This document shows, piece by piece, positions 5,751-59,180 of a DNA stretch of 64,000 nucleotides (its first letter is position 1; the number at the start of each line of letters is the position of its first letter). The stretch lies in NCBI GenBank assembly GCA_029263415.1, contig JAJCXN010000041.1, positions 141,338 through 205,337 on the forward strand, given 5' to 3'. A program made the translations under genes and the position numbers. The notes beneath the pieces were generated by a model, which saw only the letters and a list, made by a program, of their open reading frames with translations, ran no database searches and was not told where the DNA came from. This DNA is from Acidobacteriota bacterium (GTDB lineage: Bacteria; Acidobacteriota; Thermoanaerobaculia; Multivoradales; Multivoraceae).

Positions 5751-6929
5751 GTGAAGCGGCTCGCGGTTTTTCTCGACGGGACCTGGAATGACCCAGCTAG
5801 CAGGACCAATGTGTCTCGGCTGCACGGCTTGGTCGCTGACGTTGGCACAGATGGCGCACGACAACTCGCGTACTACGACACAGGCGTCGGCACCAAACGC
5901 TTTGAGAAGCTGCGGGGTGGCGTGGGTGCTTATGGGCTCTCTAGGAACGTCAGACAAGCCTACGGCTGGCTGAAGGAGCAGTACGAAGAGGGAGATGAGG
6001 TCTTCGTCTTCGGTTTCAGTCGGGGAGCGTTCACCGCGCGCAGCGTTGCAGGAATGATCGCTCGCTATGGGTTGCTTATGCCCGACTCGTCGGTGACGGT
6101 GGATGAACTCTACGAGCTCTACCGCGCCGAAGCGAAAGGCAAGCCTGGGCCGGGCTCTGTGGAGGAGGCCCTTGTTAGTCGCTTGAAAGAGAATGCCCGC
6201 CGGATACGCGTCCGCTTTGTCGGCGTCTGGGACACGGTCGGTACTTTGGGTGTGCCGTTTGGAAACATCCCGGGTATCAGTCGCAAGCAGTTTCGCTTCC
6301 ACAACACCCGGCCCAGCCGATGGATCGACGAAGGGTGTCAGGCGCTTGCGATCAATGAGAATCGAAGGGCCTACGACGCCGTGTTGTGGACCAACTTTCT
6401 GGCCTTGAATCCTGCGACCGGGAAGATCGCCGACCCACTGCGCCGTTCGCAGGTTCACCATCCGTCGTTCGAACAACGGTGGTTCATTGGAGTGCACTCG
6501 AACGTCGGCGGTGGTTATCCAGATGACGTTCTAGCTCTGCCGCCACTGTCATGGATCCAACGCCGCGCCGCCGGTGCGGGCCTGGCCTTCACCGCTACTG
6601 TTGCGTTGAGCGGTGACGAGCACTTGCGAGGAGAGCTGGTTGACTCGTTCAAGAGGTTCATGAAGGGCATCTATCAGATCGTCCGGTTCAATCGGCGTCA
6701 CTATCGCGAGATCGGTCGAGCCCTGGTGGAACGCAGCGGTCGCTCGGTCGGCTTGCTGGAGACAGTCAACGAGAGCATCGATCGCACGGTGATCGAACGC
6801 TGGCAGCAGGACGGTGAATACCGGCCAAAGAATCTGCGCGAGTTCGCCGATCGAGCCGGCATCGACCTTGAGGCGCCGGCGCCTGCTGACAGCCTAAAGG
6901 TCGAGAGCGACTGGGACTCTCACACCTAG
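5751..6929 (+). CDS. DUF2235 alpha/beta-hydrolase (Tle1-like phospholipase family)
   Basis: The N-terminus MKRLAVFLDGTWND and YYDTGVGT are hallmarks of DUF2235. It has a GxSxG nucleophile elbow (GFSRG) and a VWDTVG block. GTG start, with AGGGA about 9 nt upstream. Confidence 0.7.
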   Translation: MKRLAVFLDGTWNDPASRTNVSRLHGLVADVGTDGARQLAYYDTGVGTKRFEKLRGGVGAYGLSRNVRQAYGWLKEQYEEGDEVFVFGFSRGAFTARSVAGMIARYGLLMPDSSVTVDELYELYRAEAKGKPGPGSVEEALVSRLKENARRIRVRFVGVWDTVGTLGVPFGNIPGISRKQFRFHNTRPSRWIDEGCQALAINENRRAYDAVLWTNFLALNPATGKIADPLRRSQVHHPSFEQRWFIGVHSNVGGGYPDDVLALPPLSWIQRRAAGAGLAFTATVALSGDEHLRGELVDSFKRFMKGIYQIVRFNRRHYREIGRALVERSGRSVGLLETVNESIDRTVIERWQQDGEYRPKNLREFADRAGIDLEAPAPADSLKVESDWDSHT

Positions 6930-9246: not shown

Positions 9247-10248
9247 CTAGCGCTGCCGGGCCTGCCACTGCTTGCTCAACTGTTGCAAGCTTGCTGGTGT
9301 GAGTCGGCGATTGTCGAGCACCTTCGATAGTTCGAGAATGTGCGGTTGCAGCGGCATCATGACGCTGAGGGCCTGATAGGTCCCCATGGCCTTGCCGTAG
9401 TCTCCGTTGAACAAGTACGCGTCGCCTCGGCGAAAGTAGGCGCTGATCCCGCCGGGGTTGGCCTCAATGCTCCGGTCGAATGCCGCGATCGCTTCGGGAT
9501 ATCGATGTGTGAGCATTAGATACCAGCCGGCGTTCGACAGTTCGTCAGCCTTCTTGGGCAGTGCCGGAGGCGACCGATCGAGCGACGATGTGCTGATCCC
9601 AGTGGCCACCGCGCTCGCCGTGGTGTAGTTGAACAAGAAGAGGTCGAGATCGAATTCGAGAGTGGTCCCGAGCGAATCTAGACCTAGTTCCGAGGTGTCG
9701 ACCTTCATCTTTCCTTTGGCTTGGAGATAGCTTTCGTTTTTGCCGTTGACTTCTACTTTGCCAGGGGCGACAAGGTGCAAGGTTGCTGAGGTCGATCTCG
9801 ATTTCACAATCAACGTTCCTTTGAGTGCCACACCGCCCGGAGACTTGCTGGCGGACTCGCTTTGAAACGCGATGAATGGATGGTGCTCGAAATCGAATGC
9901 GTCGCTCAGTTTCTTGGCCACGCTGCCCTCGAGGTCTTCTAGGCCGTCAGTTCGCAAGAGCAGAGTTGCTGAGGTTGCTTCTGGCTGGTCGTGTCTATAG
10001 AAGAATGTTCCGTTGAACTTGGCCATGGCCGCTTTGCCAGCGCCGGGAACGCCCACCGCCACCTTCATCCGTTTGCCCGACGTCATCAGTCGCGAACTCA
10101 TTTCGAAGTTCGCAGAGGGGCCTGCGACTGGTATGTCTTTGATGGTCGGCTGCGCGGTGCCAAGAGCCGGAAGCGCTATCACGAACAGAAAGCCGATGCT
10201 CCACGAGACGATTTCGTTGATTTGACGATTGGGTTCGATTGATCTCAC
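9247..10248 (-). CDS. YceI-like domain protein with C-terminal TPR repeats, secreted
   Basis: YceI-like blocks (FDFEHHPFIAFQS, GTLIVKS) followed by TPR-like helices (AIAAFDRSIEANPGGISAYFRRGDAYLFNGDYGKAMGTY). GTG start with AAGAGGA upstream. Confidence 0.65.
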   Translation of the reverse strand: MRSIEPNRQINEIVSWSIGFLFVIALPALGTAQPTIKDIPVAGPSANFEMSSRLMTSGKRMKVAVGVPGAGKAAMAKFNGTFFYRHDQPEATSATLLLRTDGLEDLEGSVAKKLSDAFDFEHHPFIAFQSESASKSPGGVALKGTLIVKSRSTSATLHLVAPGKVEVNGKNESYLQAKGKMKVDTSELGLDSLGTTLEFDLDLFLFNYTTASAVATGISTSSLDRSPPALPKKADELSNAGWYLMLTHRYPEAIAAFDRSIEANPGGISAYFRRGDAYLFNGDYGKAMGTYQALSVMMPLQPHILELSKVLDNRRLTPASLQQLSKQWQARQR

Positions 10249-10980: not shown

Positions 10981-13608
10981 TTATGAACTGGACATAACGT
11001 GCACGTTGGTGTCCAACGGTTCGAGTTCGTCTTCGATCGCGTTTTCTGTTGGGAGTTCCAATTGGGCGGTTTTGAGGGTCAAGAGAAGTTGCGCCTCTCG
11101 AGCATCGGTCGAATCGTCGAATGCCCTGCCTGACTCGCAGTATCGTCGCAATTGTTCTCGAGCTTCGCCTTTGCGGCCAACTCGAACCAGGTGCCGAAAC
11201 AACGAATTCCTCGCCCGGAGTTCGTAAAGATAGGCGCCCTGTTGTTGAGCCATCTGAATGGCCAGGTGAAACCCCCGCTCTGATCCGGTCGTTGTTTCGA
11301 TGCCGTCGGCTTCGCGTTGCGCGAACTGGATTTCGGCCATCAAGCGCTGAAGCTCAGCAGAGTGAGCTTGGTCGGCGGCGATGCTGGGCTGAGTCAACGC
11401 TTTGTAGGCGCCCTCTAGGTCGCCCTGGCGCAGGTGCGCCTCGCTTTGCCAAGACCGGTAGAGGCCGCCGAGGAAGATCGGGCCGGTGGGTTCGCGCTTC
11501 TTAAAGACCTGGTCTAACCTCTCTACGGATTCGAGGCTCGGTTCGAGATTGTAGGACGCCCAAGTGTGCAGAACGCGGCCAGCATCTCCGTACCACTCGA
11601 AGCCGTTCTCGTCTGCGATGGTAATCGCCCGCTTGGCGGCCTTAGCGGCCACCTCGAAGTCGCGGGCGAGACAAGCCGCCGTCGCTTCTGACGCCCAAAT
11701 GAGTAGTCGATCGTAGGGATTGGTCGCGCTGTCGAGGCGCTTGAGCATCTGTCGGCGCGCGAGGAGCGCCTCGCGGTGCCGGCCCTGAATGTGCAGTGCC
11801 CAAGCGCTATAGCCGTGGGCTGCGACGATGATGTCCCAGGTCTGAGGCTCAAGCTCGTCCTCGTTCGCTTGAGTGACCTCTTGCATCAACTCCAAGGTTC
11901 GATCGAATCTGCCTCGTCCGTAAGCGTCAAATGCCGCACGAAGGCACGCCAAAGGATAGAAGCTCGGACGATCCTGAGCCAGTTCGAGCAAGTCTTCACA
12001 CAGTTGAGGTGCGTCTTCCGAGCCAGTGAGTGCTGCGTTCAGGGTCCGACCCATGTGACTCCTCAAGATGATGTCCGCATCTCCACTCGCCGCGCTCAGA
12101 GCGTAGGCTCGATCTAGCGCCTCTCGAACTTCTGGATGTGAGTAGCCTTCCAACCATGTCCTGACGGTGGCTAGCTGCGTCCACCGTTCCGCGCTGCGCC
12201 GAGCCTGCTGTTGCGGTTCTGGTAAGCCATCTAACGCTTCTGCCGCTCGCCGAAGAAGTACCACTGCATGGGAAAAGGAAAAACGTTGGTGTGCATGGCT
12301 TGCAGCGACCTCTAGGTAGCGCACGTGCCGTTCGATGTCGCCAGCAGCTTCAAAGTGACCCGCCAGCTGGGCCGCGATCTGTTCAGTGCAGCCCTCGTAG
12401 GCGGCTTCGAGCCGCAAACCAATCCGACGGTGAAGTTCGCGGCTGCGGACTGCGCTGAGGCCTTGCAACAGGTGCTGGCGGTAGACGTCGTGATGGAACG
12501 CAAACTGTGAGCTGACGGTGTTGTCCGGCCACCGACTGTCACCTGTCCGTTGGAGGAAAAAGTCAGCCGCAGCTAGTTGCTCGAAAAGGCGCTCGACGTG
12601 TAGCCCGTCGCTGTCCGTGCCGGCGGCAACTTCTGCGGCCGTGAACTGCCCGCCTGCCACACTTGCGGCTTTGAGGATCTCTTTTTGCAGCTTGGGAAGC
12701 TCAGCCAGCTGAAGCCTGAGGAGCGTGGCGATGCTCTCGGGCAGCGAGGCTCCGGATCGCTTATGCAAATCCTCTCCGCGCCTGACCGCCCCTGACAGTG
12801 CCTCCAAGAAGAGAGGGTTTCCCCCGCAACGATCCCGGACCGCCGCCCAGTCGAAGTCCTCCGTGTCGCCGAAGCGTTGGTCGAGGTAGTTCTCAACCTC
12901 GGTTTCGTTCAAAGCTGCAAGTTGTAGATGGACAACGTTGTCGAGAGGTGTGAGCGTATCGACCGATGCAGTCAACGGGTGTCCGGAGATCTGGGCTGCA
13001 GAGGCTCTGAATGTGCAGATCACCAGTAGCTGCGTTGGTGCTTGCCTTCTGGAAATGGTCGCCACGAGGTCCAAGGTAGCGCTGTCGCACCAATGAAGAT
13101 CCTCAATCCACAACACAAGAGGGGTGCTCTTGGCAAGCGAAGAAATCACGTGGGCGCCCTCTCGCAGCATGCGAGCTGGACCTATTCCTTGCACGCTCGC
13201 AGCGAGCTCTTGTAGCTGCTGGGCAGACCAAAGCCACGGCATTTGCACCGCCCAACTGGGAGCTTCTCGGGCGATGGTGTCGATCGCCAAGGCTCGATCC
13301 GGCTGAGCCTCGATCGCCTGCTCCAGCGCCTCTAGGGCCGGCATGAAGGGCTCACATTCTCCTTGTTGTAACTGGCAACGGCCAACCGCGACTACCGCTG
13401 GTTGTTCGCTGGGGCCGGGTTCATTCAACCGAGACACGAAGGCCTTGGCCAGGCTGGTCTTGCCGATGCCTGCTTCGCCGCTGACCAGAACGATCTGGGG
13501 CTCGCAATGCTGGGCCTTTTGCCAGGCTGCGAGAAGGGCCTGCAGCTCCTGTTCTCGACCGACAAAATGAGCCGGCGCTTCAGGTCGCGGTTGGTCGTGC
13601 GGTGTCAT
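10981..13608 (-). CDS. AAA_16 (STAND-like) ATPase with a TPR region; large ATP-dependent regulator module
   Basis: Walker A VSGEAGIGKTSLA near the N-terminus, Walker B-like LVLWIEDLHWCD, and a long helical TPR-like C-terminal region. Its start overlaps the upstream winged-helix ORF's stop by 1 nt (TAATG). Confidence 0.8.
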   Translation of the reverse strand: MTPHDQPRPEAPAHFVGREQELQALLAAWQKAQHCEPQIVLVSGEAGIGKTSLAKAFVSRLNEPGPSEQPAVVAVGRCQLQQGECEPFMPALEALEQAIEAQPDRALAIDTIAREAPSWAVQMPWLWSAQQLQELAASVQGIGPARMLREGAHVISSLAKSTPLVLWIEDLHWCDSATLDLVATISRRQAPTQLLVICTFRASAAQISGHPLTASVDTLTPLDNVVHLQLAALNETEVENYLDQRFGDTEDFDWAAVRDRCGGNPLFLEALSGAVRRGEDLHKRSGASLPESIATLLRLQLAELPKLQKEILKAASVAGGQFTAAEVAAGTDSDGLHVERLFEQLAAADFFLQRTGDSRWPDNTVSSQFAFHHDVYRQHLLQGLSAVRSRELHRRIGLRLEAAYEGCTEQIAAQLAGHFEAAGDIERHVRYLEVAASHAHQRFSFSHAVVLLRRAAEALDGLPEPQQQARRSAERWTQLATVRTWLEGYSHPEVREALDRAYALSAASGDADIILRSHMGRTLNAALTGSEDAPQLCEDLLELAQDRPSFYPLACLRAAFDAYGRGRFDRTLELMQEVTQANEDELEPQTWDIIVAAHGYSAWALHIQGRHREALLARRQMLKRLDSATNPYDRLLIWASEATAACLARDFEVAAKAAKRAITIADENGFEWYGDAGRVLHTWASYNLEPSLESVERLDQVFKKREPTGPIFLGGLYRSWQSEAHLRQGDLEGAYKALTQPSIAADQAHSAELQRLMAEIQFAQREADGIETTTGSERGFHLAIQMAQQQGAYLYELRARNSLFRHLVRVGRKGEAREQLRRYCESGRAFDDSTDAREAQLLLTLKTAQLELPTENAIEDELEPLDTNVHVMSSS

Positions 13609-13925
13609 TAGTGGACTTTCCTCAGCGACGGCGCAGAGTCGGACGGAGCGGAGCCGGTAGCCTCGCCCCGCACATTTTCGATCTGTGCACCCCGCCCCAG
13701 GATCCGTCTTGGTTCGCTGACCAAGTTGGTCAACGCCTGATCCGAAACCGCGGAATCGGGCCAGGCAGAAGCGAGCAATTCTTCAGTCGACCCCGTGTTT
13801 CCGTGACTTCTTGCCAGGCAGCACAACACGGCCCACGCCTTGGGGCGAGCACGAATGGGCCTGCCATTCTCGAACAGTTGGCCCGCCTTGAGATCTGGGG
13901 AAAGGGTTCCGATGGGCAGTTGCAT
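13608..13925 (-). CDS. Winged-helix DNA-binding domain protein (OmpR/CadC/SARP trans_reg_C type), translationally coupled to the downstream AAA/TPR ORF
   Basis: LFENGRPIRARPKAWAVLCCLARSHGNTGSTEELLASAWPDSAVSDQALTNLVSEPRRILG matches the trans_reg_C pattern (L..G..I.L.PKA..VL..L...G..VS.EEL...WPD..V.D..L...VS.LRR). GAGGAAAG Shine-Dalgarno-like sequence precedes the overlapping ATG of the next ORF. Confidence 0.6.
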   Translation of the reverse strand: MQLPIGTLSPDLKAGQLFENGRPIRARPKAWAVLCCLARSHGNTGSTEELLASAWPDSAVSDQALTNLVSEPRRILGRGAQIENVRGEATGSAPSDSAPSLRKVH

Positions 13926-14128
13926 GGTCCATCGCCGATTGTATCGACTATAGCTAGAACTATCTCTAGTTCAAGAGCAGGGTCATGGCTCCTTGCCCGG
14001 AGGACGAACTCAGCCAGCAACGCGAACTGGTGCTCCTCCGGCAACCTCGTGATCAGTCCTGGGCACCGATCGGTCCCGGGCACAGGGTAAGGTGGTCACC
14101 ACAGGACAAACAAAACGGGGGTTGGACA

Positions 14129-15091
14129 ATGAAGCAGAACCATTCGGGTGCGCAAGCCCGAGGAGCACGTAGCAAGGGTGGACGGCTGCGCTTGAAAACC
14201 AACTGTTCGCGTTCGCCGATGGCGCTGGTGGCGTTGCTGTCGCTCGTGCACGTCGCTGGTGGCGTTGGTAATGCTCAGTCACAGCTTGCTCAGCCGTCCG
14301 TGCCCAAGGCCACTGTCGAACGACTGTTGCGAGTCGGCAAGGCACTTCCTGGCCGTGTTGAACTCAAGCTTACCCTTGGCGAACCAGCAGATCCCTTAGG
14401 CGACTTCCTGCCACGGGATGCCCGCTTTGTAGCGGGCGTCAGTTGGGAATCTGGAGCGCTGGCGCTTCTCGAGATGAGGCTGCCGCAAGAGGAGATACGG
14501 GACCAGCTGTTGGCCGCGGTGTCGAATACCCAGCTCTCGCTCATCCTGCCTCAAGGTTATGGCTTTGTAGCAAGTCCCGAAGGCTTTCCCGTCGTTTTCT
14601 GCCAAGGCGCAGAACGGCGTCTGAGAGTATGGCTGGTCGATGGAGGCGAGCAAGCCTCGGCCGATGAGCCAGCAGACTTAGCGTTGTTGTACACGGAGGG
14701 CGCCAGCGCGTGCCCAGAGGCACGATCGCGTGCAGCGCGAGCCAGCGTGCTGCCCATTCTCGTCGCACCGCCAAACGTAGAGGTTACTCGCGGTGGGAGC
14801 ACCAGTAGCAGCGGCGAATCGGAGAGCCAGCACGTGACGCTATCTTCCAGTCTCACACCGACCGAGCTGGTTCGTCACTTCGCTCTCGGGATGGAGGAGC
14901 AGTCCTGGCAACCGAACGTCCCGGTGGAACTCGAAAGTTTCGCGATGCAGACCTTCACTGCCTATGTGTTAGACGAGGCGACTGCCCGGACGTTCGCCTG
15001 GCACGCCACTCTGACGGTGCGCAGGGTAGCCAATGTGAGGATGAGGAGCGGCCGTATCACTGTGGAAAAGCTGGGCCCTGTCGACGAATAA
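14129..15091 (+). CDS. Hypothetical secreted protein
   Basis: Long ORF with coding-like composition. The internal ATG at 14129 is preceded by GGGGG and followed by a signal-peptide-like MALVALLSLVHVAGGVGNAQS. No recognisable domain. Divergent from the wH/AAA regulator pair. Confidence 0.45.
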   Translation: MKQNHSGAQARGARSKGGRLRLKTNCSRSPMALVALLSLVHVAGGVGNAQSQLAQPSVPKATVERLLRVGKALPGRVELKLTLGEPADPLGDFLPRDARFVAGVSWESGALALLEMRLPQEEIRDQLLAAVSNTQLSLILPQGYGFVASPEGFPVVFCQGAERRLRVWLVDGGEQASADEPADLALLYTEGASACPEARSRAARASVLPILVAPPNVEVTRGGSTSSSGESESQHVTLSSSLTPTELVRHFALGMEEQSWQPNVPVELESFAMQTFTAYVLDEATARTFAWHATLTVRRVANVRMRSGRITVEKLGPVDE

Positions 15092-15226
15092 GACCACGGT
15101 GATGGATCAATCCAAGTGCTTTCCATCAGAGGCTGAGACGCCGAGCCTGACCACCAAGCTGGCGGACTTCTGATCCGTATTGGATTTGTGACTCAGCATG
15201 CCGAAGTGGAGATTGGTTAAGACTGG

Positions 15227-17143
15227 TCAGGACGAACTCAGGGCGTTCGACTCGCTTTTAGGACCGCGCCTGGAGCCAACACCCCGGGGATCCCACGCCA
15301 CCTTTTCTGGCTCCAGCCCAACCTCAACCTTCTTCGCCACAAAAGAGGTCTTTCCGGTGTTCTCTTCCCACAAGCCGACGGCCATGTCATAGGCGCCTTC
15401 CCCCAGGAAGAACTCCGCTCGTAGTGCGAAGTAGTGATCCTTTGCCGCTGCGTGATCCCGCCGTGGAACTTCCACCACGAACGCCAGGTTGCGCGGACTC
15501 AAGCGAACTCCCGCCGCGTTCCGGAGTTGCACTACCGAGCGAAAGTTTCCAGCCACCACATCCCCGTTGCGAACCAGCTCTAGTCCGCCGATCGGCATGC
15601 TGACCACTACCGTCATCTTGCGACGGTCCGGTTGCTCGCCCGCCGCTTGCGACTCGACGGCGGCCTGCTCGAAAGAGGTGTCGATTTCGAGACCGTGCTG
15701 GTTCTCCTGCCAATCGAACAGCAACGTACCCCAAGCGCGACTGGCCAGGTTCTCTTCCATGCTGAGCGGAACGTAGCTTGCCCTGTGTCGCACTCTCGAG
15801 CGTCGTTCCCGAACCTTGAGTTCTATCTCGCGGATGGCTGTGCCCTCGAGCGAGCCCGGTGGGGTGAAGCTCAACGAGTAGTAGTTGGAGACGTCGGCGC
15901 GCGCGGTATCGACAAACTTCCCAAGGCCACTGTCGGCGGAGAAGGCGAGGCCGCCGGTGGCGTGGGCGAGCGCTGCGAGTCCTGAGTTCATGTCGGTGAG
16001 TTCAGCGATCGATCCTCGTTGCCCCTTGTTGGTGCCGAGGCCGGTGAGAGAACTATCAGTGATCGGCGCCTTGATTGGATAGAAGGTCACTCGATGGGTG
16101 TTGGCAAGCGCTGCAAGACGCTCAAACTCCTTGAAATTGCTGAACTGAGACACCAGTCGTTGGAACTGGCCGGAGCCGCCGTCGTCGAGTTGTAGGACCG
16201 TTTCCCCACGGCCATCCCCCATCTCGGTACCGGTGGATCGGGCGTTGGTGGTATTGATCGGGATGACGTTGGGATCGTCAATTGTGTCGCCGCCTTCGAA
16301 GGTCGACGATGCCCCAGCAAGGCGGTCGTTCATGGTACTGGCGAGGATGTCTAGTGGCTCGCGAGCAAGACCATCGGTGATGAACAGCAACGCCTTGCGG
16401 CCGGGGAGAAACGACAACGCCGCGACCACTTCCTCCAGTGAGCGTAGGGTCCGGCGCGCATCGTGTGCCAGCGCTTCCGCGTAGCCCCGAGATTGGATCG
16501 CCAAGCCGCGCAGTTCCGCCTGGCCGTAGCGATACGCCGACCCTCTTTGAGAGAGCTTCTTCAGGGTGCTTTGAGTTGCAGCAGAGATGGCGCGCTGCAA
16601 GGGAATGAGTTCGGAGGTGCTGGTCAATCGTTGCTTCGCAGCGTCGATTGCGGTTTGTACGGCGCCCACGTTGCGAGTGGGTGCTAGGAGCGGCTCGACG
16701 GTGTCCGAAACTGCGACCATCGCCACCCAGGTTGGGCTTTCGTTCATTTCACGAACAAGGACCGGCTTGATGATGTCGAGGACTCGGTCGCGATGGGCGT
16801 ACATCAGGTTGCGTTCGTCCATGACGACAACCGCGGTGAGTCTCGCTCCGATCGAGTCGCGCACGGTGCGTGCGTCGGACACGCCAGTGACCTTGACCTT
16901 CTTGCCGTCGACCCTCAAATCGAAGTCAGCGGTGCTGAGATCGGCAAGGCGCTCTCCCGAGCGATCGGTAACTACCGCGTCCAAGTGGATCAGGCGAACA
17001 TCGATGGCCTCGTCGACAGTGAATCGGTCGGGATCTACCGTGTCCTTCTTCTGCGCAGCGCCAAGCGATGCAACAGCGCACAGTACGCTGGCGGCCAGTG
17101 CGATGCGTCGTTGCGCTCGTGATGTTGTTTGTCGTTGTGTCAT
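15227..17143 (-). CDS. VWA domain-containing secreted protein (Acidobacteria-type VWFA-related family)
   Basis: ~638 aa from the ATG at 17143 (signal peptide MTQRQTTSRAQRRIALAASVLCAVASLGAAQ). VWA-like core (TAVVVMDERN...ALLFITDG). The track ORF start at 17401 extends into an implausible Arg-rich leader. Confidence 0.65.
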   Translation of the reverse strand: MTQRQTTSRAQRRIALAASVLCAVASLGAAQKKDTVDPDRFTVDEAIDVRLIHLDAVVTDRSGERLADLSTADFDLRVDGKKVKVTGVSDARTVRDSIGARLTAVVVMDERNLMYAHRDRVLDIIKPVLVREMNESPTWVAMVAVSDTVEPLLAPTRNVGAVQTAIDAAKQRLTSTSELIPLQRAISAATQSTLKKLSQRGSAYRYGQAELRGLAIQSRGYAEALAHDARRTLRSLEEVVAALSFLPGRKALLFITDGLAREPLDILASTMNDRLAGASSTFEGGDTIDDPNVIPINTTNARSTGTEMGDGRGETVLQLDDGGSGQFQRLVSQFSNFKEFERLAALANTHRVTFYPIKAPITDSSLTGLGTNKGQRGSIAELTDMNSGLAALAHATGGLAFSADSGLGKFVDTARADVSNYYSLSFTPPGSLEGTAIREIELKVRERRSRVRHRASYVPLSMEENLASRAWGTLLFDWQENQHGLEIDTSFEQAAVESQAAGEQPDRRKMTVVVSMPIGGLELVRNGDVVAGNFRSVVQLRNAAGVRLSPRNLAFVVEVPRRDHAAAKDHYFALRAEFFLGEGAYDMAVGLWEENTGKTSFVAKKVEVGLEPEKVAWDPRGVGSRRGPKSESNALSSS

Positions 17144-17262
17144 CGAGTGGTTGACCAGGGCGTTAGCAAGTGTTGGCGGCCGCCTGCTAGGAGTAGTTCG
17201 ATGATCGATACCTCCTCGGAGGTTCAGCCGGTCCGGAGAATGGTCAAAAGATGAACGGGCGA

Positions 17263-18318
17263 TCAATCCTGGGTCGCTTCTTGCGCGCGGCGTTGCAACT
17301 CCTCCCTTTCTAGAAGTCGAGCTCCGCGCAGGATGCCGCCCATGGCGTAGTTGCCTTCGTGACAGGCGTATTCGTACAGCCGGTCGTCGGTCAGCGGCCA
17401 CATTTGCGCGCCCGAATAGGGGGCTGCATAGTTTGTATCGTTGACCGTGAACTCATAGAGCAGTTCGTTCTGATTCTTGCGAGTGAAACGTTCGACGATG
17501 TGCAAACCCTCGCGGGCTTGGTTGGGCGTTTCGAGGAAGTTAGTGGTATCCACAACCAGCGTGTCGCCTTCCCAATGGCCGATGGAGTCGCCGCCGAGTG
17601 ATCGGATGTCCGACGGCGGGTGTTCGCTATTGAGGCGAATGACGCGGGCCCAGTGCATCCATTCCACCAAGATCATCACGTGGTTGTCGGTCTGCACGAT
17701 CGTCTTGAGGTTGTTGTAGAGCACCGAGCGCATTGGCACGGTGGTGACTGTGAGATAGATGCAGCGCTCGATCAGCGGCAGCGTTTCCGGATTGTCGTAC
17801 GGTCCACTCTCGAGATCGAGCCACCAGGCGTTGCCGGTGTTCTCGAAGGTGTAGGGGCGGATCTTGGCGAGACGCGCTTTGCCCGCTGAGGACAACGCCG
17901 GCATCTGACCATTGGGCGGATCGGTGAGCACCGAGGTGCGGTACTTGTCGCCGATCTTGAACATGCTGTTGCCCGGGTCGACCCAGAAGCTGTTGTAGCC
18001 GCCAACTTTGCCGGCAGCGCCAGCCGAGCCGTCGCCTCCGGGAGGCGGTGCCTCGCGGTTGGGATCGCTGTCGCGATCGGCGAAAGCCATGGCCGCCGCT
18101 GCGGAGCGCTCGATGGCCTGCGCCTGTTCGTCGGTGAGTTCCTGTTGATCGCCGAGCCCTGCCGCGCGGGTGAAAGGGGTGAGGGTCGCGATGTCGTAGT
18201 TGCCGGAGAGGTCTGGACGACCGCTTGGGGTCCTCGGCACTTCGTCTTGACTCAGGACTGGAAGGGAAATGAGGCTGAGAAGAACAGCGAGTGGAATGAT
18301 GTGTGGTGTCTTGGACAT
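17263..18318 (-). CDS. Conserved secreted protein of unknown function (paralog 1 of 2 in the window)
   Basis: Signal peptide MSKTPHIIPLAVLLSLISLPVLSQ. Shares PRTPSG.PDLSG.YDIATLTP, GGYN.FWVD, VLYNN, WxGDTLVV.T.NF and the C-terminal YEYACHEGNYAMGGIL with the ORF at 55159-56271. GGAGAG lies upstream of the ATG at 18318. Confidence 0.6.
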   Translation of the reverse strand: MSKTPHIIPLAVLLSLISLPVLSQDEVPRTPSGRPDLSGNYDIATLTPFTRAAGLGDQQELTDEQAQAIERSAAAAMAFADRDSDPNREAPPPGGDGSAGAAGKVGGYNSFWVDPGNSMFKIGDKYRTSVLTDPPNGQMPALSSAGKARLAKIRPYTFENTGNAWWLDLESGPYDNPETLPLIERCIYLTVTTVPMRSVLYNNLKTIVQTDNHVMILVEWMHWARVIRLNSEHPPSDIRSLGGDSIGHWEGDTLVVDTTNFLETPNQAREGLHIVERFTRKNQNELLYEFTVNDTNYAAPYSGAQMWPLTDDRLYEYACHEGNYAMGGILRGARLLEREELQRRAQEATQD

Positions 18319-18557
18319 AGCGCTCTCCGGAAAGTTCACGCGTCGTTGCCAGAACCGTTGGGGCCTCGTCGAGGACAAGGGTGGTTTCGGTAGGAGGGGG
18401 CCTTTGATGGACGCGAACCCTGAGTGTACCGGTAGCGTGTTTGGCCGGAGCTAGATGGTGTCGGCGCCTAGCATCGCACGCTCCCACTTGCGGTGAGCGC
18501 GATTTGCCGATCAACTACTGCCCAATCCCGACGACGAACTGCTTGAGGCTCCTCGAT

Positions 18558-20666: not shown

Positions 20667-22526
20667 CTAGAGAGCGATCGGTCCGTGGCCCTCGATGAGT
20701 AGCTCGTCGACGGTCATGGTCACGTGCTCGCCTTGGCGGACGTCGTGATCAAACTTGTAGGTCACTCCGAGATCGCCCTTGCTCGCGGCCGCGTCGTACT
20801 CAGCGGCCTTGGCTCGTGTGATCTCAACGCGATCGCGCCAAGCGCTCATGGCGTCGCCACCAAACGTTTGCTCCAGCTGTTGTTGAACGACATGCGGACC
20901 AGCCACCCAGGCAGTTGCGTTGTTGCCGCCAAAGCCTTTGGCGTTGAGAAACGCGACGTCGTAGTCGGTAGCAGCGCCCGTGATGTGTTCGCTGTCGATG
21001 CGCAATCGATCGCCTGAAATGTCGTCGGCAGGTCCGTCGATGGTGGCGATGCCGGGGATCACACCGTCGGCCCAGGTACCCAAGCAGGAAGCCAACTGGT
21101 CGCCACCGGCAGCTGCCATGGTGTGACCGACGAAGCACTTGATGGCGGCGACTGGCCATTCCTGGATGTCGAAGGTTTTGGCAACTAGATCGAGAATCTC
21201 GGATTCACTCGTGCGGTTCTGCGGCGTCCCCGTGCCGTGAGCGTGTACGAAGCTGCGTTGTGCGATGGCTTCAGTACCGAGCACCTTGCGCGCCGACGCG
21301 ACGGCCTTGGCAAAGGTGATGTAGTTGCCCACCCCAGGAGAGGAGATCGATTTTTTGTGTCCGTCAGCGTGCACAAAGACGTCGCCGACAGCGCCCAAGA
21401 TGTTGGCGCCCATCTCGACCGCGAGCTCGGCGTCCATCAAGACGCAGAACTGGGCCCCCTCGCCCATGACGAAACCACCGTTGATGCCAAAGGGACGGCA
21501 GGCCCTTCGATGATTGGGAGTCTCGCCCGGCTGCTTGCCTTCGAGCTGGAGCAAAGCGGCGTCGCCAATCAAAGCGCCCATGGTGGCGAGTCCATCCATC
21601 GCGTCCGCCACCAGCGGCGCCTCGACGCCGCCAATCACCGCGACGCGCGAGCGACCTTCACGAATGTCCTGTACGCCTAAGCGCAGGTTGTAGTGGAAGG
21701 TGGCGCATGCGCCCATGTTGTGGCCGGTTTGGCCCATGCTGCCGAGTACGTAGGCGTTGGTGAAGTCGGCGGCCATCTCGCCAAGGCCCATTGGTACCTG
21801 CTTCGAAGATACCCGCTTGCCCCGTTGGCGAGAGGAGAGCAGGCCACCGTTGCCGTTTTGATCGAGCTGGGTCATGGCGCTGCCAGCGTAGGTTGAGAAC
21901 TGGTCGGGTGGTACTCGATCAAGGATGGTCTGCCAGTCGATACCAAGACTGTTGATCGCATCGCTCGCTGCCACGACCGTGAGTTCCAGGCCGCGAGGAT
22001 GACTGCGTGCGGGATAGTGGTCGCCGGGCTCGAAGCCAGTGGGAACCATGCCGCCCGCTGCAACTCCGAGGTCGCGCGTGTCGGGCACGAACAGTTCTGT
22101 TTGGTCGGTGACCGTGATGGTGATGCGTTGCTTGTTGCCTTCGCCCTTTGTGCTTTCGACAGTCCACCCTGGCGGCATGGCCTCAGGCAACTCGCGCTTG
22201 CTGATCTCGAAGCGGAGTGGAGTGTCTGTGGCTTGCAGGCAAACGCGTCGGTTCCAAGGAGCAGCGTTGGGATTGAAGAACGACGGCTCAATGCGGCGGA
22301 CTAAGGACCCGGTCCTTAGGCGCTCAATGGCAGCTTGGTCGAGGCTATCGGCGTTCTTGCTACCTGTGAGGCCGGCTAGGCTGCGCCACATCGCGTCGAC
22401 TTTGGCGGTGGGGAGGGCTGAGTGCGTGGTACGTCGGTAGGCTTGGTGAGAGGAACTTCGACCGGCGGCACCGACACCGCCGAAACTGACAATGACCGGG
22501 AGTCGCTGAGAAAAGTTAGTGGACAC
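20667..22526 (-). CDS. Beta-ketoacyl-ACP synthase with a long N-terminal extension (FabY-like KAS I/II-type initiating condensing enzyme)
   Basis: KS active-site Cys context GHNMGACATF, HAHGTGT and CFVGHTMAAAGG (KAS His/His). At 619 aa with a ~250-aa N-terminal extension it resembles the P. aeruginosa FabY class; that assignment is from memory. Confidence 0.7.
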   Translation of the reverse strand: MSTNFSQRLPVIVSFGGVGAAGRSSSHQAYRRTTHSALPTAKVDAMWRSLAGLTGSKNADSLDQAAIERLRTGSLVRRIEPSFFNPNAAPWNRRVCLQATDTPLRFEISKRELPEAMPPGWTVESTKGEGNKQRITITVTDQTELFVPDTRDLGVAAGGMVPTGFEPGDHYPARSHPRGLELTVVAASDAINSLGIDWQTILDRVPPDQFSTYAGSAMTQLDQNGNGGLLSSRQRGKRVSSKQVPMGLGEMAADFTNAYVLGSMGQTGHNMGACATFHYNLRLGVQDIREGRSRVAVIGGVEAPLVADAMDGLATMGALIGDAALLQLEGKQPGETPNHRRACRPFGINGGFVMGEGAQFCVLMDAELAVEMGANILGAVGDVFVHADGHKKSISSPGVGNYITFAKAVASARKVLGTEAIAQRSFVHAHGTGTPQNRTSESEILDLVAKTFDIQEWPVAAIKCFVGHTMAAAGGDQLASCLGTWADGVIPGIATIDGPADDISGDRLRIDSEHITGAATDYDVAFLNAKGFGGNNATAWVAGPHVVQQQLEQTFGGDAMSAWRDRVEITRAKAAEYDAAASKGDLGVTYKFDHDVRQGEHVTMTVDELLIEGHGPIAL

Positions 22527-58446: not shown

Positions 58447-59038
58447 CTCATGCAGGAGTTGGACTCAAGAACATTGCTTATTTGAGTCAGGAACAAGCTT
58501 AGAGGTTCCGCAGGAGGGCGAACGGTGTATAGGGGTTTTGCCGCCCTGAGATTAGGTGCCTCGGGTGGTACCGAGAGCGTCTTGATCGTGATCGCTGTGG
58601 CCCGCGACAACCATGTTCTTGTGATTGGGCAATGCAGGTTTGGTTCAGCACAACTGAGGGTCTTGCTCGACAAGTGCAGCCCGTCACTCTCAGGTGAGTC
58701 GCCGAATAATACACAGCTGCTCGTCGAGGAACTGAACGGCCTTAGCCGAGCTGGCGGGCGTAGCTGCTGGAGCTGAGAAGGCAGTCAGTGGCGCTCACGT
58801 TTTCCTGAAAAGCTGATCGCCGATTCCTAGTTTTGCTATGGTAAGTGAGACCGAGGACTCTCGGACTTTGAGTCCGGCGCACATCCAACGAGGAGCGAGC
58901 GCCGAACCTATTTGCGGATCATCTAACTTTTTCTTGTGCTTCCGTCGTTTCGCGCCTACCTCCTGGCGCCAACGATCCCCCCTCTTTCGGAGGGTTCCCT
59001 GTTTCGTACGCTTTGTGCGTACCTGTGCGGTATAGTCG

Positions 59039-59056
59039 ATCGAATTCAAATTCGAT
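59039..59056. promoter_or_regulatory. Perfect 8-bp-arm palindrome ATCGAATT-ca-AATTCGAT ~125 bp upstream of the TonB-dependent receptor gene, in an AT-richer divergent intergenic region
   Basis: Read directly from the sequence. Candidate dimeric-regulator operator by position only. Confidence 0.25.
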
Positions 59057-59180
59057 AAGAGACAGATCGGTTGGTTGGCCCTAAAGCCAATGTCCCACGA
59101 CGGGTGTTGACCGGTCGATCGATCCCTAAGGCTCTGAAACCCAGATGAGGCTTGAAAGCCCACAACCGGAGGTTGCATCC

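Follow-up and report, generated by a model that had tools for sequence, protein, structure and literature searches.

A single-base frameshift inside the winged helix divides a STAND-type regulator gene into two overlapping reading frames

Two overlapping reading frames on the minus strand

As annotated, the locus consists of two open reading frames on the minus strand of the 64-kb window (i.e. the whole stretch of DNA that was analysed): ORF1 (13925-13608; 105 aa) and ORF2 (13608-10981; 875 aa), the latter covering a NOD ATPase, an arm and a TPR-like sensor. Base 13608 is common to the TAA stop codon of ORF1 and the ATG start codon of ORF2, and the TAATG overlap and the ORF coordinates given in an earlier, sequence-only reading were confirmed. 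Each ORF is called as a gene in the public record; in a cluster look-up both were singletons, and no intact 981-aa allele was on record. Upstream of the ORF2 ATG lies GAGGAAAG, the GAGG of which begins at position -15 and stands 11 nt upstream of the ATG. A Shine-Dalgarno-like sequence is thus present, as had been claimed, but the same 4-mers precede 41 of the 302 in-frame internal ATG codons of the window (14%); the frequency of the motif here is not above chance and gives no evidence of design. A promoter-like site (TTGAAC, 16 nt, TATAGT; 13947..13974, minus strand) precedes the ORF1 ATG by 22 nt. Recognized by consensus match only, with one site found versus 0.5 expected from shuffles, it is the sole promoter candidate for the entire gene. 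An inverted repeat is also present in the intergenic DNA at 13926-14125.

The break lies within the winged helix

Residues 1-87 of ORF1 correspond to the native N-terminus and most of an OmpR/PhoB-type winged helix, according to both the Trans_reg_C match and the alignment with homologues. The Pfam HMM Trans_reg_C matched residues 21-87 with 33.6 bits (E=4.3e-8), so that the winged-helix similarity proposed by the sequence-only reading was found by HMM search. The domain in ORF1 is incomplete, however: the match covers profile positions 1-72 of 77, and residues 88-105 (EATGSAPSDSAPSLRKVH) are an out-of-frame read-through that ends at the stop codon TAA (13610-13608), the frameshifted product carrying ...NVRGEATGSAPSDSAPSLRK. 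The end of the winged helix that is absent from ORF1, including its last β-strand (RGYRL), is encoded in the frame of ORF2 upstream of its ATG. Before that ATG this frame stays open for 58 codons, reading ...AGRGYRLRSVRL..., and the 19 codons before the ATG (RGYRLRSVRLCAVAEESPL; 13609..13665, minus strand), which hold the last wing β-strand and the linker, are translated by neither annotated ORF.

When the GGGG run at 13669-13666 was lengthened by one G, a single ORF of 981 aa resulted, in which Trans_reg_C matched over its entire length (1-77 of 77, 40.4 bits, with a cut-off of 26.2 bits). The complete winged helix of the repaired gene (residues 21-92; 13651..13865, minus strand) spans the frameshift, and the start Met of ORF2 becomes the internal M106 of the linker. 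When the repaired protein was used in tblastn, the frame switch fell at residues 77-87. The repaired segment IENVRGRGYRL aligned with the family consensus ETVRGRGYRF (40 aligned homologues), and the conserved family columns R88, G89 (100%), Y90, R91 and P105 were all kept within 13609..13665.

The position of the lesion was located by a repair scan, in which every repair position was scored against a family HMM built without the query. The best score (725.2 bits) was obtained at 13666/13669; placing the repair at the TAATG gave 704-706 bits, ~20 bits less, and placing it at the upstream limit gave 663 bits. Unrepaired, ORF1 and ORF2 reached 61.1 and 637.3 bits, respectively, the fused repair being 27 bits above their sum. 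From the frame and HMM evidence, the GGGG run (13666..13669, minus strand) is the inferred site of a 1-nt deletion from an ancestral GGGGG. The break is therefore inside the winged helix and not at a domain boundary. Since the indel lies ~60 nt upstream of them, inside the winged helix, the TAATG overlap and the 'Shine-Dalgarno' sequence are by-products of the shifted frame. A 1-nt indel splitting the gene was one of the options offered by the sequence-only reading, and it is strongly supported by the finding that a single-base repair restores the family consensus; the interval suggested there for resequencing (13590-13630), though, does not include the lesion.

Relatives are nearly all encoded as single polypeptides

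Among 8,000 candidates scored, 1,281 matched at E<=1e-5, the best of them with 30-37% identity. PF00486 was fused to PF13191 in 115 of the 119 best non-self homologues, which had a median length of 983 aa, and no example of a winged helix split from the ATPase was found among these 119. This agrees with the earlier expectation that the architecture is usually a single polypeptide of ~1000 aa, and the ortholog comparison that had been suggested as a check (fused or split) came out as nearly uniformly fused. In the two inspected homologues that have no winged helix (P0086 and P0091), no winged-helix ORF was present upstream on the same strand. Fusions of this type are labelled 'DNA-binding winged helix-turn-helix (wHTH) protein/predicted ATPase/TPR repeat protein' by JGI and 'AAA family ATPase' by NCBI.

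After the one-base repair, the gene shares with the wHTH-AAA_16-TPR fusion family the domain order, the length of ~980 aa, the linker length and the motifs: 57 aa separate the GYRF motif and Walker A (family median, 58), and 143 of the 191 highly conserved family columns are kept. Whereas the family proteins are one polypeptide, this gene as sequenced is two ORFs, frameshifted in the winged helix, and is very divergent. Four residues are deleted before the wing, and A26, G45 and N84 are unusual at conserved winged-helix positions. No orthologue above ~37% identity was found in any collection searched.

ATPase and predicted sensor of ORF2

The AAA_16 P-loop domain occupies ORF2 residues 15-197 (13018..13566, minus strand; Pfam E=2.9e-25, 90.1 bits), as the sequence-only reading had it. 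Walker A (GEAGIGKT; 13479-13456) and the Walker B region (LWIEDLHWCD; 13113-13084, with its ED..W.D motif), both on the minus strand, are kept at invariant columns, and the invariant family columns G44, G47, G49, K50, D170, W173 and D175 are all kept. In the predicted structure of ORF2 (pLDDT 90.9), residues ~19-382 (12463..13554, minus strand) form a putative NOD module made up of an α/β nucleotide-binding domain (NBD), a helical domain (HD) and a winged-helix domain (WHD) with a β-hairpin. Residues ~386-844 (11077..12453, minus strand) are modelled as an all-helical arm and TPR-like repeat sensor of continuous helix pairs, for which pLDDT was >90. The best PDB match to the ORF2 model in Foldseek was PH0952 (6mfv_A; E=7.9e-11, 740 columns), and other matches included MalT (8bob_C, E=5.9e-6), CED-4 (4m9s), Orc1/Cdc6 and Avs3. 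By fold, the sensor region resembles the TPR sensor of PH0952 and TPR proteins such as APC/C subunits and LGN. No Pfam TPR family matched ORF2, even at E<=1, so that for the TPR part of the earlier assignment the predicted fold and the homologues, which do carry TPR_12 and related families, are what supports a TPR-type nature of the C-terminal half. The modelled fold places ORF2 among NODs of the MalT/PH0952 type that have a TPR sensor.

Comparison with known regulators and defence systems

The order NOD (NBD-HD-WHD), arm and helical-repeat sensor predicted for ORF2 is that of MalT and of PH0952 from P. horikoshii, with ~14-18% identity in structural alignments. The effector of MalT is a C-terminal LuxR-type HTH, whereas here it is an N-terminal OmpR/PhoB-type winged helix. 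For STAND proteins of the MalT/PH0952 clade, an ADP/ATP switch, autoinhibition by the arm and sensor and inducer-triggered multimerisation have been described (PMC6468293), and by analogy the same ADP/ATP switch as in PH0952 and MalT would likely operate in the intact protein.

AfsR, a large SARP of Streptomyces, is a STAND transcription activator with an N-terminal OmpR-type DNA-binding domain, a NOD and TPRs (PMC10936776). The present gene is AfsR-like in this respect, its DNA-binding domain being complete only after repair. SARPs, however, are defined by an additional BTA domain of ~150 residues that is packed on the DNA-binding domain and contacts RNA polymerase in the AfsR structures (PMC10936776). 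Unlike AfsR, this gene has ~30 linker residues between the winged helix and the NOD, with 57 residues from the wing motif to Walker A, and the BTA domain (PF03704, BTAD) gave no match at E<=1 or E<=0.01. The SARP label of the sequence-only reading was rejected for lack of a BTA domain. Its CadC-like label was given up as well, since the domain matches and the model show no membrane or periplasmic part: in CadC/ToxR-like regulators an N-terminal winged helix leads into a transmembrane helix and then a sensor domain in the periplasm, whereas a soluble NOD-TPR part is predicted here. The winged helix itself resembles that of CadC weakly (NF007540, 18.5 bits versus a cut-off of 400; PDB 5ju7, E=0.0022).

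An Avs-like layout had also been raised. Avs proteins are STAND NTPases with a TPR-like sensor, as is this protein, and Avs3 was the second-best structural match; judged from the model, the likeness does not go beyond the generic STAND fold. The effector of Avs is a cell-killing domain (nuclease, protease or the like), whereas the only domain here other than NOD and TPR is Trans_reg_C. No PADLOC model was matched (the sole match at E<=0.01 was an insignificant one to a RecD P-loop, E=0.0071), and no defence-island context was seen around the gene in the 64-kb window. For lack of a PADLOC match, the reading as a defence system was rejected.

Origin of the frameshift and alternative explanations

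A look-up of contigs encoding ORF2 gave no record, but the one for ORF1 did. The Logan assembly of SRR15505518 showed 100% identity across 3,730 bp that include the G4 run, with the reservation that the Logan and NCBI assemblies may rest on the same reads, in which case a systematic homopolymer miscall would be possible. Because the two assemblies agree, the sequenced DNA does carry the lesion, and therefore the gene is most likely recently inactivated (pseudogenised) or a crippled copy. We consider it a good deal more probable than any one alternative that the locus is one STAND regulator gene of ~981 residues that has lost one G from a G5 run, and we infer that the lesion is biological, with loss of function. 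A base-calling or consensus error, in which case the organism would have an intact gene for a functional 981-aa wHTH-NOD-TPR regulator, is less probable, although it deserves to be taken seriously. The break sits in a homopolymer, and the sequence downstream of it is fully preserved, including residues that the shifted reading leaves untranslated, Walker A, Walker B and all invariant family columns. Such an absence of decay is as compatible with a read error as with a very recent mutation. Neither an intact nor a broken second allele was found for comparison in the collections searched: a pattern search of genome_contigs and metagenome_contigs, with run lengths from G3 to G6 accepted, gave no match, the locus being absent from both in either allele, and a literature search for SRR15505518 returned no papers. 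Against an error stand the identical 3.7 kb, with its G4, from an independent assembler, the length of the run, four bases being short for homopolymer errors, and the rest of the window, where no other broken gene was seen. That remainder carries 43 long ORFs at a coding density of ~90%, its domains match over their full length, and widespread indel noise is therefore absent from the window.

The sequence-only reading had also considered a natural, translationally coupled two-component regulator, i.e. an evolved STAND system with a 105-aa DNA-binding subunit and an 875-aa ATPase/TPR subunit, produced by termination-reinitiation at the TAATG and assembled non-covalently. The TAATG overlap and the upstream GAGG exist, both ORFs are called as genes and relatives without a winged helix are known (P0086 and P0091). 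Yet the split cuts the winged helix at profile position 72 of 77 instead of separating domains, the 18-residue tail of ORF1 matches nothing in the family, and the other frame still codes for the missing strand, family-invariant residues included, which argues against a split gene, since selection on a split gene would not preserve that strand. Together with the absence of splits among the best homologues and of winged-helix ORFs upstream of P0086 and P0091, the commonness of the SD-like motif before internal ATGs and the higher HMM score of the fused form, this makes a two-protein system very improbable and already largely refuted. Even less credible is programmed recoding or phase variation, whether by -1 ribosomal frameshifting, polymerase slippage or an on/off switch in the G run. 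Slipping by -1 once GGC (13667-13665) has been read would yield precisely the consensus VRGRGYRL; however, the stretch that is open in both frames has no X_XXY_YYZ slippery heptamer, no homologue needs recoding, and the predicted folding of the downstream 81 nt was poorer than in shuffled controls (z=+1.43), 191 of 200 shuffles being at least as stable. A run of 4 nt is, moreover, far below the length of known slippage or phase-variation tracts.

Proposed function of the intact protein and effect of the lesion

The intact protein would comprise, in order, an OmpR/PhoB-type winged helix effector, a linker of ~30 residues, a NOD (NBD-HD-WHD), an arm and a sensor of TPR fold. By analogy with MalT, PH0952 and AfsR, it may rest with an ADP-bound, closed NOD kept inactive by the arm and the TPR sensor. 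Ligand binding to the sensor would open the NOD, and exchange of ADP for ATP would lead to multimerisation, which could gather the N-terminal winged helices on promoter repeats and so activate transcription. Loss of one G from the G5 run, inside the last β-hairpin of the winged helix, would have shifted the frame into 18 junk codons followed by a TAA that by chance overlaps the codon of an internal linker Met, and it is because of this overlap that the locus looks like two coupled ORFs. As sequenced, it would thus specify a winged helix without its last β-strand and an ATPase/sensor part without an effector, the latter presumably made only if ribosomes reinitiate at the TAATG, in which case its N-terminus would read MTPHDQPR. 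The overlap of the ORF2 ATG, with its GAGG, and the ORF1 stop could allow some reinitiation and possibly residual function. There is a slim chance that the frameshift is tolerated, with the wing-truncated 105-aa protein and a reinitiated, effector-less NOD-TPR protein cooperating, or with the NOD-TPR protein acting as a ligand sink or dominant-negative form; if so, the locus would show a STAND regulator caught in the course of gene fission.

Significance and genomic surroundings

The finding is an ordinary one and not a purpose-built two-protein system; as a correction, annotation as a frameshifted gene or pseudogene is called for, and the locus should not be mined for a new architecture. The wHTH-NOD-TPR family without BTA domain is very large in environmental bacteria and has no characterised member, and a repaired copy could serve as one representative of it. 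Before stop/start overlaps are read as design, a useful check is whether the missing end of a domain is found in the frame of the neighbouring ORF.

No paralogue of the regulator was present in the window, and scans of its full 64 kb with Rfam and for tRNAs gave no match. No syntenic regulator was found beside relatives of the neighbouring PQQ dehydrogenase (10-kb flanks), the sole match being a 26% AAA match in L014. These relatives share <=56% identity with the dehydrogenase and are scattered over several phyla (Hydrogenedentota, Acidobacteriota, Steroidobacteraceae and others).

One gene split into two ORFs by a frameshift

Two overlapping ORFs, ORF1 (13925..13608, 105 aa) and ORF2 (13608..10981, 875 aa), are present on the minus strand as the sequence-only reading had described, with base 13608 common to the ORF1 stop codon (TAA) and the ORF2 start codon (ATG) (…GTC CAC TAATG ACA…) and GAGGAAAG upstream of the TAATG overlap. 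In Pfam, ORF1 matched Trans_reg_C (E=4.3e-8) and ORF2 matched AAA_16 (E=2.9e-25), the latter also giving weak matches to NACHT, NB-ARC and other P-loop families. The winged helix (wHTH) proposed for ORF1 is thus present but is not a separate complete domain. That is, the match covers only profile positions 1-72 of 77, after which the protein ends in …IENVRGEATGSAPSDSAPSLRKVH. OmpR/PhoB-type winged helices usually carry a terminal β-strand of the form …VRGxGYRF/L. All-frame translation revealed that the ORF2 frame is open for 58 codons 5′ of its ATG and that this upstream stretch reads …AGRGYRLRSVRLCAVAEESPL-MTPHDQ…. The terminal strand, absent from ORF1, can be read there, meaning that the missing strand of the wHTH is encoded in the frame of the other ORF, in a stretch translated by neither annotated ORF.

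Lengthening the GGGG run at 13669-13666 by one G converts GTG CGG GGC GAG into GTG CGG GGG CGA GGC TAC CGG CTC and produces a single uninterrupted 981-aa ORF (the repaired protein), reading …IENVRGRGYRLRS…, in which the Trans_reg_C match extends over 1-77 of 77 positions and scores 40.4 instead of 33.6 bits. Comparison of the repaired protein with the window by tblastn placed the frame switch at residues 77-87 and detected no paralogue of the regulator in the window. With a family HMM made without the query, ORF1 alone scored 61.1 bits and ORF2 alone 637.3 bits, and each possible one-base repair position was scored across the zone in which both frames are open. The score climbed steadily from 663 bits at the upstream limit to a maximum of 725.2 bits at the G-run (13666/13669) and dropped beyond it, with 704-706 bits at the TAATG junction. 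This peak places the indel in the G-run within the winged helix, about 60 nt 5′ of the junction and beyond the interval (13590-13630) earlier proposed for resequencing. The repair and the HMM therefore support the 1-nt indel that had been considered, but not its presumed location. The two-component, translationally coupled appearance is an artefact of this one-base frameshift inside the DNA-binding domain, and the idea of a natural coupled regulator is not supported.

The Shine-Dalgarno-like sequence had been thought correctly placed; however, SD-like 4-mers (GGAG, GAGG or AGGA) precede 41 of the 302 in-frame internal ATG codons in the window (14%), which is the background of any 17-nt coding window, and GAGG at -15 of the ORF2 ATG lies at the outer limit of the distances observed before likely true starts. 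In the repaired frame, GAGG belongs to the codons for linker residues A-E-E-S. Programmed -1 frameshifting was rejected, as no canonical slippery heptamer occurs in the permissive zone and the 81 nt 3′ of the G-run form a less stable fold than shuffled controls do (z=+1.43).

Relatives of the repaired gene

When 5.8 billion protein clusters were searched, at least 1,281 of the 8,000 candidates scored matched at E<=1e-5; the best non-self matches were only 28-37% identical, and ORF2's own match was a singleton from one 355,580-bp NCBI contig. As to whether orthologues are fused or split, PF00486 and PF13191 lie on one polypeptide in 115 of the 119 best non-self matches (median length of the best non-self homologues, 983 aa). 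The spacing from the wing motif G[YF]R[FL] to Walker A has a family median of 58 residues, compared with 57 in the repaired gene. When 40 homologues were aligned, the consensus …ETV(R/H)(G/R)RGYRF… was the residue-for-residue partner of the repaired IENVRGRGYRL, and the actual ORF1 tail had no aligned counterpart. Across 111 full-length homologues, 191 columns reach 80% conservation or more, and the repaired protein keeps the conserved residue at 143 of them, including R88, G89 (100% conserved), Y90, R91 and P105 from the stretch translated in neither ORF.

The repaired wHTH also departs from highly conserved family residues (L→A26, V→G45, D→R78 and T→N84, this T being 99% conserved) and has a 4-residue deletion before the wing, ahead of IENV, in window positions ~13850-13675. 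These features could reflect divergence of the lineage or earlier relaxed selection on the DNA-binding domain.

Fold, proposed mechanism and family assignment

ORF2 was modelled confidently with AlphaFold2 using 67 homologues (pLDDT 90.9, pTM 0.82). The model comprises an α/β nucleotide-binding domain together with a helical domain and a winged-helix domain bearing a β-hairpin, and its C-terminal part consists of about 460 residues in paired helices. These helices fit the TPR region earlier assigned to ORF2 alongside AAA_16, although no Pfam TPR family was matched even at E<=1. With Foldseek the top PDB match was PH0952 (6mfv; E=7.9e-11, 740 columns), which is the archetype of STAND ATPases with a TPR sensor. 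The next matches to the ATPase switch module (NOD) were Avs3, SAMD9, MalT (8bob), CED-4 and Orc1/Cdc6, and the C-terminal half matched many TPR proteins, e.g. APC/C subunits and LGN. In NCBIfam, ORF2 residues 15-803 showed a below-threshold resemblance to TOMM kinase/cyclase fusion proteins, in their ATPase/TPR part. The fold search and domain matches together identify the repaired protein as a transcription regulator of the STAND type, in which an OmpR-type winged helix serves as the N-terminal effector and is followed by a NOD and then by an arm and TPR sensor.

By analogy with MalT/PH0952 (PMC6468293) and AfsR (PMC10936776), the arm and sensor would autoinhibit a closed, ADP-bound NOD; inducer binding would open the NOD, permitting ATP binding and then multimerisation, and the clustered winged helices would bind the promoter. 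In the OmpR-type domain as described for AfsR, a β-hairpin follows the HTH and packs on the remainder of the domain (PMC10936776). The frameshift takes away the second strand of this hairpin, so that the 105-aa product is probably defective.

The earlier likening to SARPs does not hold, since their defining BTA domain is unmatched in the repaired regulator and the 57 residues between wing and Walker A leave no room for one. CadC/ToxR membership was likewise rejected: similarity to the wHTH is weak, and the wHTH is followed by a soluble NOD-TPR part in which nothing points to a membrane or periplasmic module. An Avs-like layout had also been suggested; however, the regulator has no PADLOC match and no toxic effector, and the neighbouring genes are metabolic or transport genes. 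It is not a recognised Avs member, and the Avs3 structural match reflects the common STAND fold. The best fit is a large uncharacterised environmental family (JGI 'wHTH protein/predicted ATPase/TPR repeat protein') in the MalT/PH0952-type STAND class.

Mutation or sequencing artefact

A record of the 105-aa frameshifted product also exists for the Logan assembly of run SRR15505518, a run on which no literature was found. The 3,730-bp Logan contig is 100% identical to window positions 12625-16354, G4 run included, although both assemblies may share reads; the lesion is therefore present in the reads and is not the quirk of one assembler. The remainder of the window holds 43 long high-GC3 ORFs at ~90% coding density, and the 20 neighbour ORFs scanned gave full-length domain matches, which argues against a noisy, indel-prone assembly. 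A base-calling error that dropped one G would fit the lack of decay downstream of the break, as would a recent frameshift equally; given the shared G4 run and the otherwise clean window, we regard such an error as rather unlikely and favour a genuine recent frameshift as the likelier origin. No intact allele was found: both ORFs are singletons, and a G3-G6 pattern search of genome and metagenome collections was empty. The lineage is poorly sampled: even for the neighbouring PQQ dehydrogenase no relative exceeds 56% identity, and a syntenic regulator is present at none of its relatives' loci. A gene fission in progress, tolerated by the cell, seems very improbable. No natural split was seen, and of the existing wHTH-less relatives the two inspected (P0086 and P0091) have no upstream same-strand wHTH ORF. 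The gene is a frameshifted and divergent representative of an already known regulator type, and has probably become a pseudogene only recently.

Promoter region and neighbouring genes

A single promoter-like candidate (TTGAAC-16-TATAGT, 13974..13947) precedes the ORF1 ATG. It is overlapped (13947-13975) by a 9-nt inverted repeat, CTAGAACTA/TAGTTCAAG (arms 13954-13962 and 13967-13975, 4-nt spacer), and by the palindromes CTATAG and TAGCTA (13948-13956), which are intergenic between the regulator and the ORF at 13985-15091. The inverted repeat, in the divergent intergenic region, is a possible operator or autoregulation site. The flanking ORFs 13985-15091 (plus strand, 368 aa) and 15227-17401 (minus strand, 724 aa) had no Pfam match at E<=0.001. 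The 368-aa ORF contains an internal Met followed by a hydrophobic, signal-like stretch, MALVALLSLVHVAGG, and its true start is probably later than called, in which case the divergent intergenic region would be ~200 nt.

Immediately downstream of the regulator region, 9247-10248 (minus strand) encodes a 333-aa protein with an unusual combination of a weak YceI-like domain and C-terminal TPR repeats. The protein encoded at 5751-6929 (plus strand) matches the T6SS Tle1-like phospholipase catalytic domain over its full length (E=3.4e-67). Its gene adjoins those of an MFS transporter and of a P450/ferredoxin pair, and the ORFs scanned in the window included no T6SS structural genes. The gaps at 17402-18440 (1,039 nt) and 58447-59144 (698 nt) hold no long high-GC3 ORF, and Rfam (gathering threshold) and ARAGORN detected nothing anywhere in the window. 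Finally, in a 619-aa ketoacyl-synthase-like protein (20667-22526, minus strand) the match to the KS N-terminal domain (profile 91-250 of 252) begins only at residue 181, leaving a long unmatched N-terminal extension.
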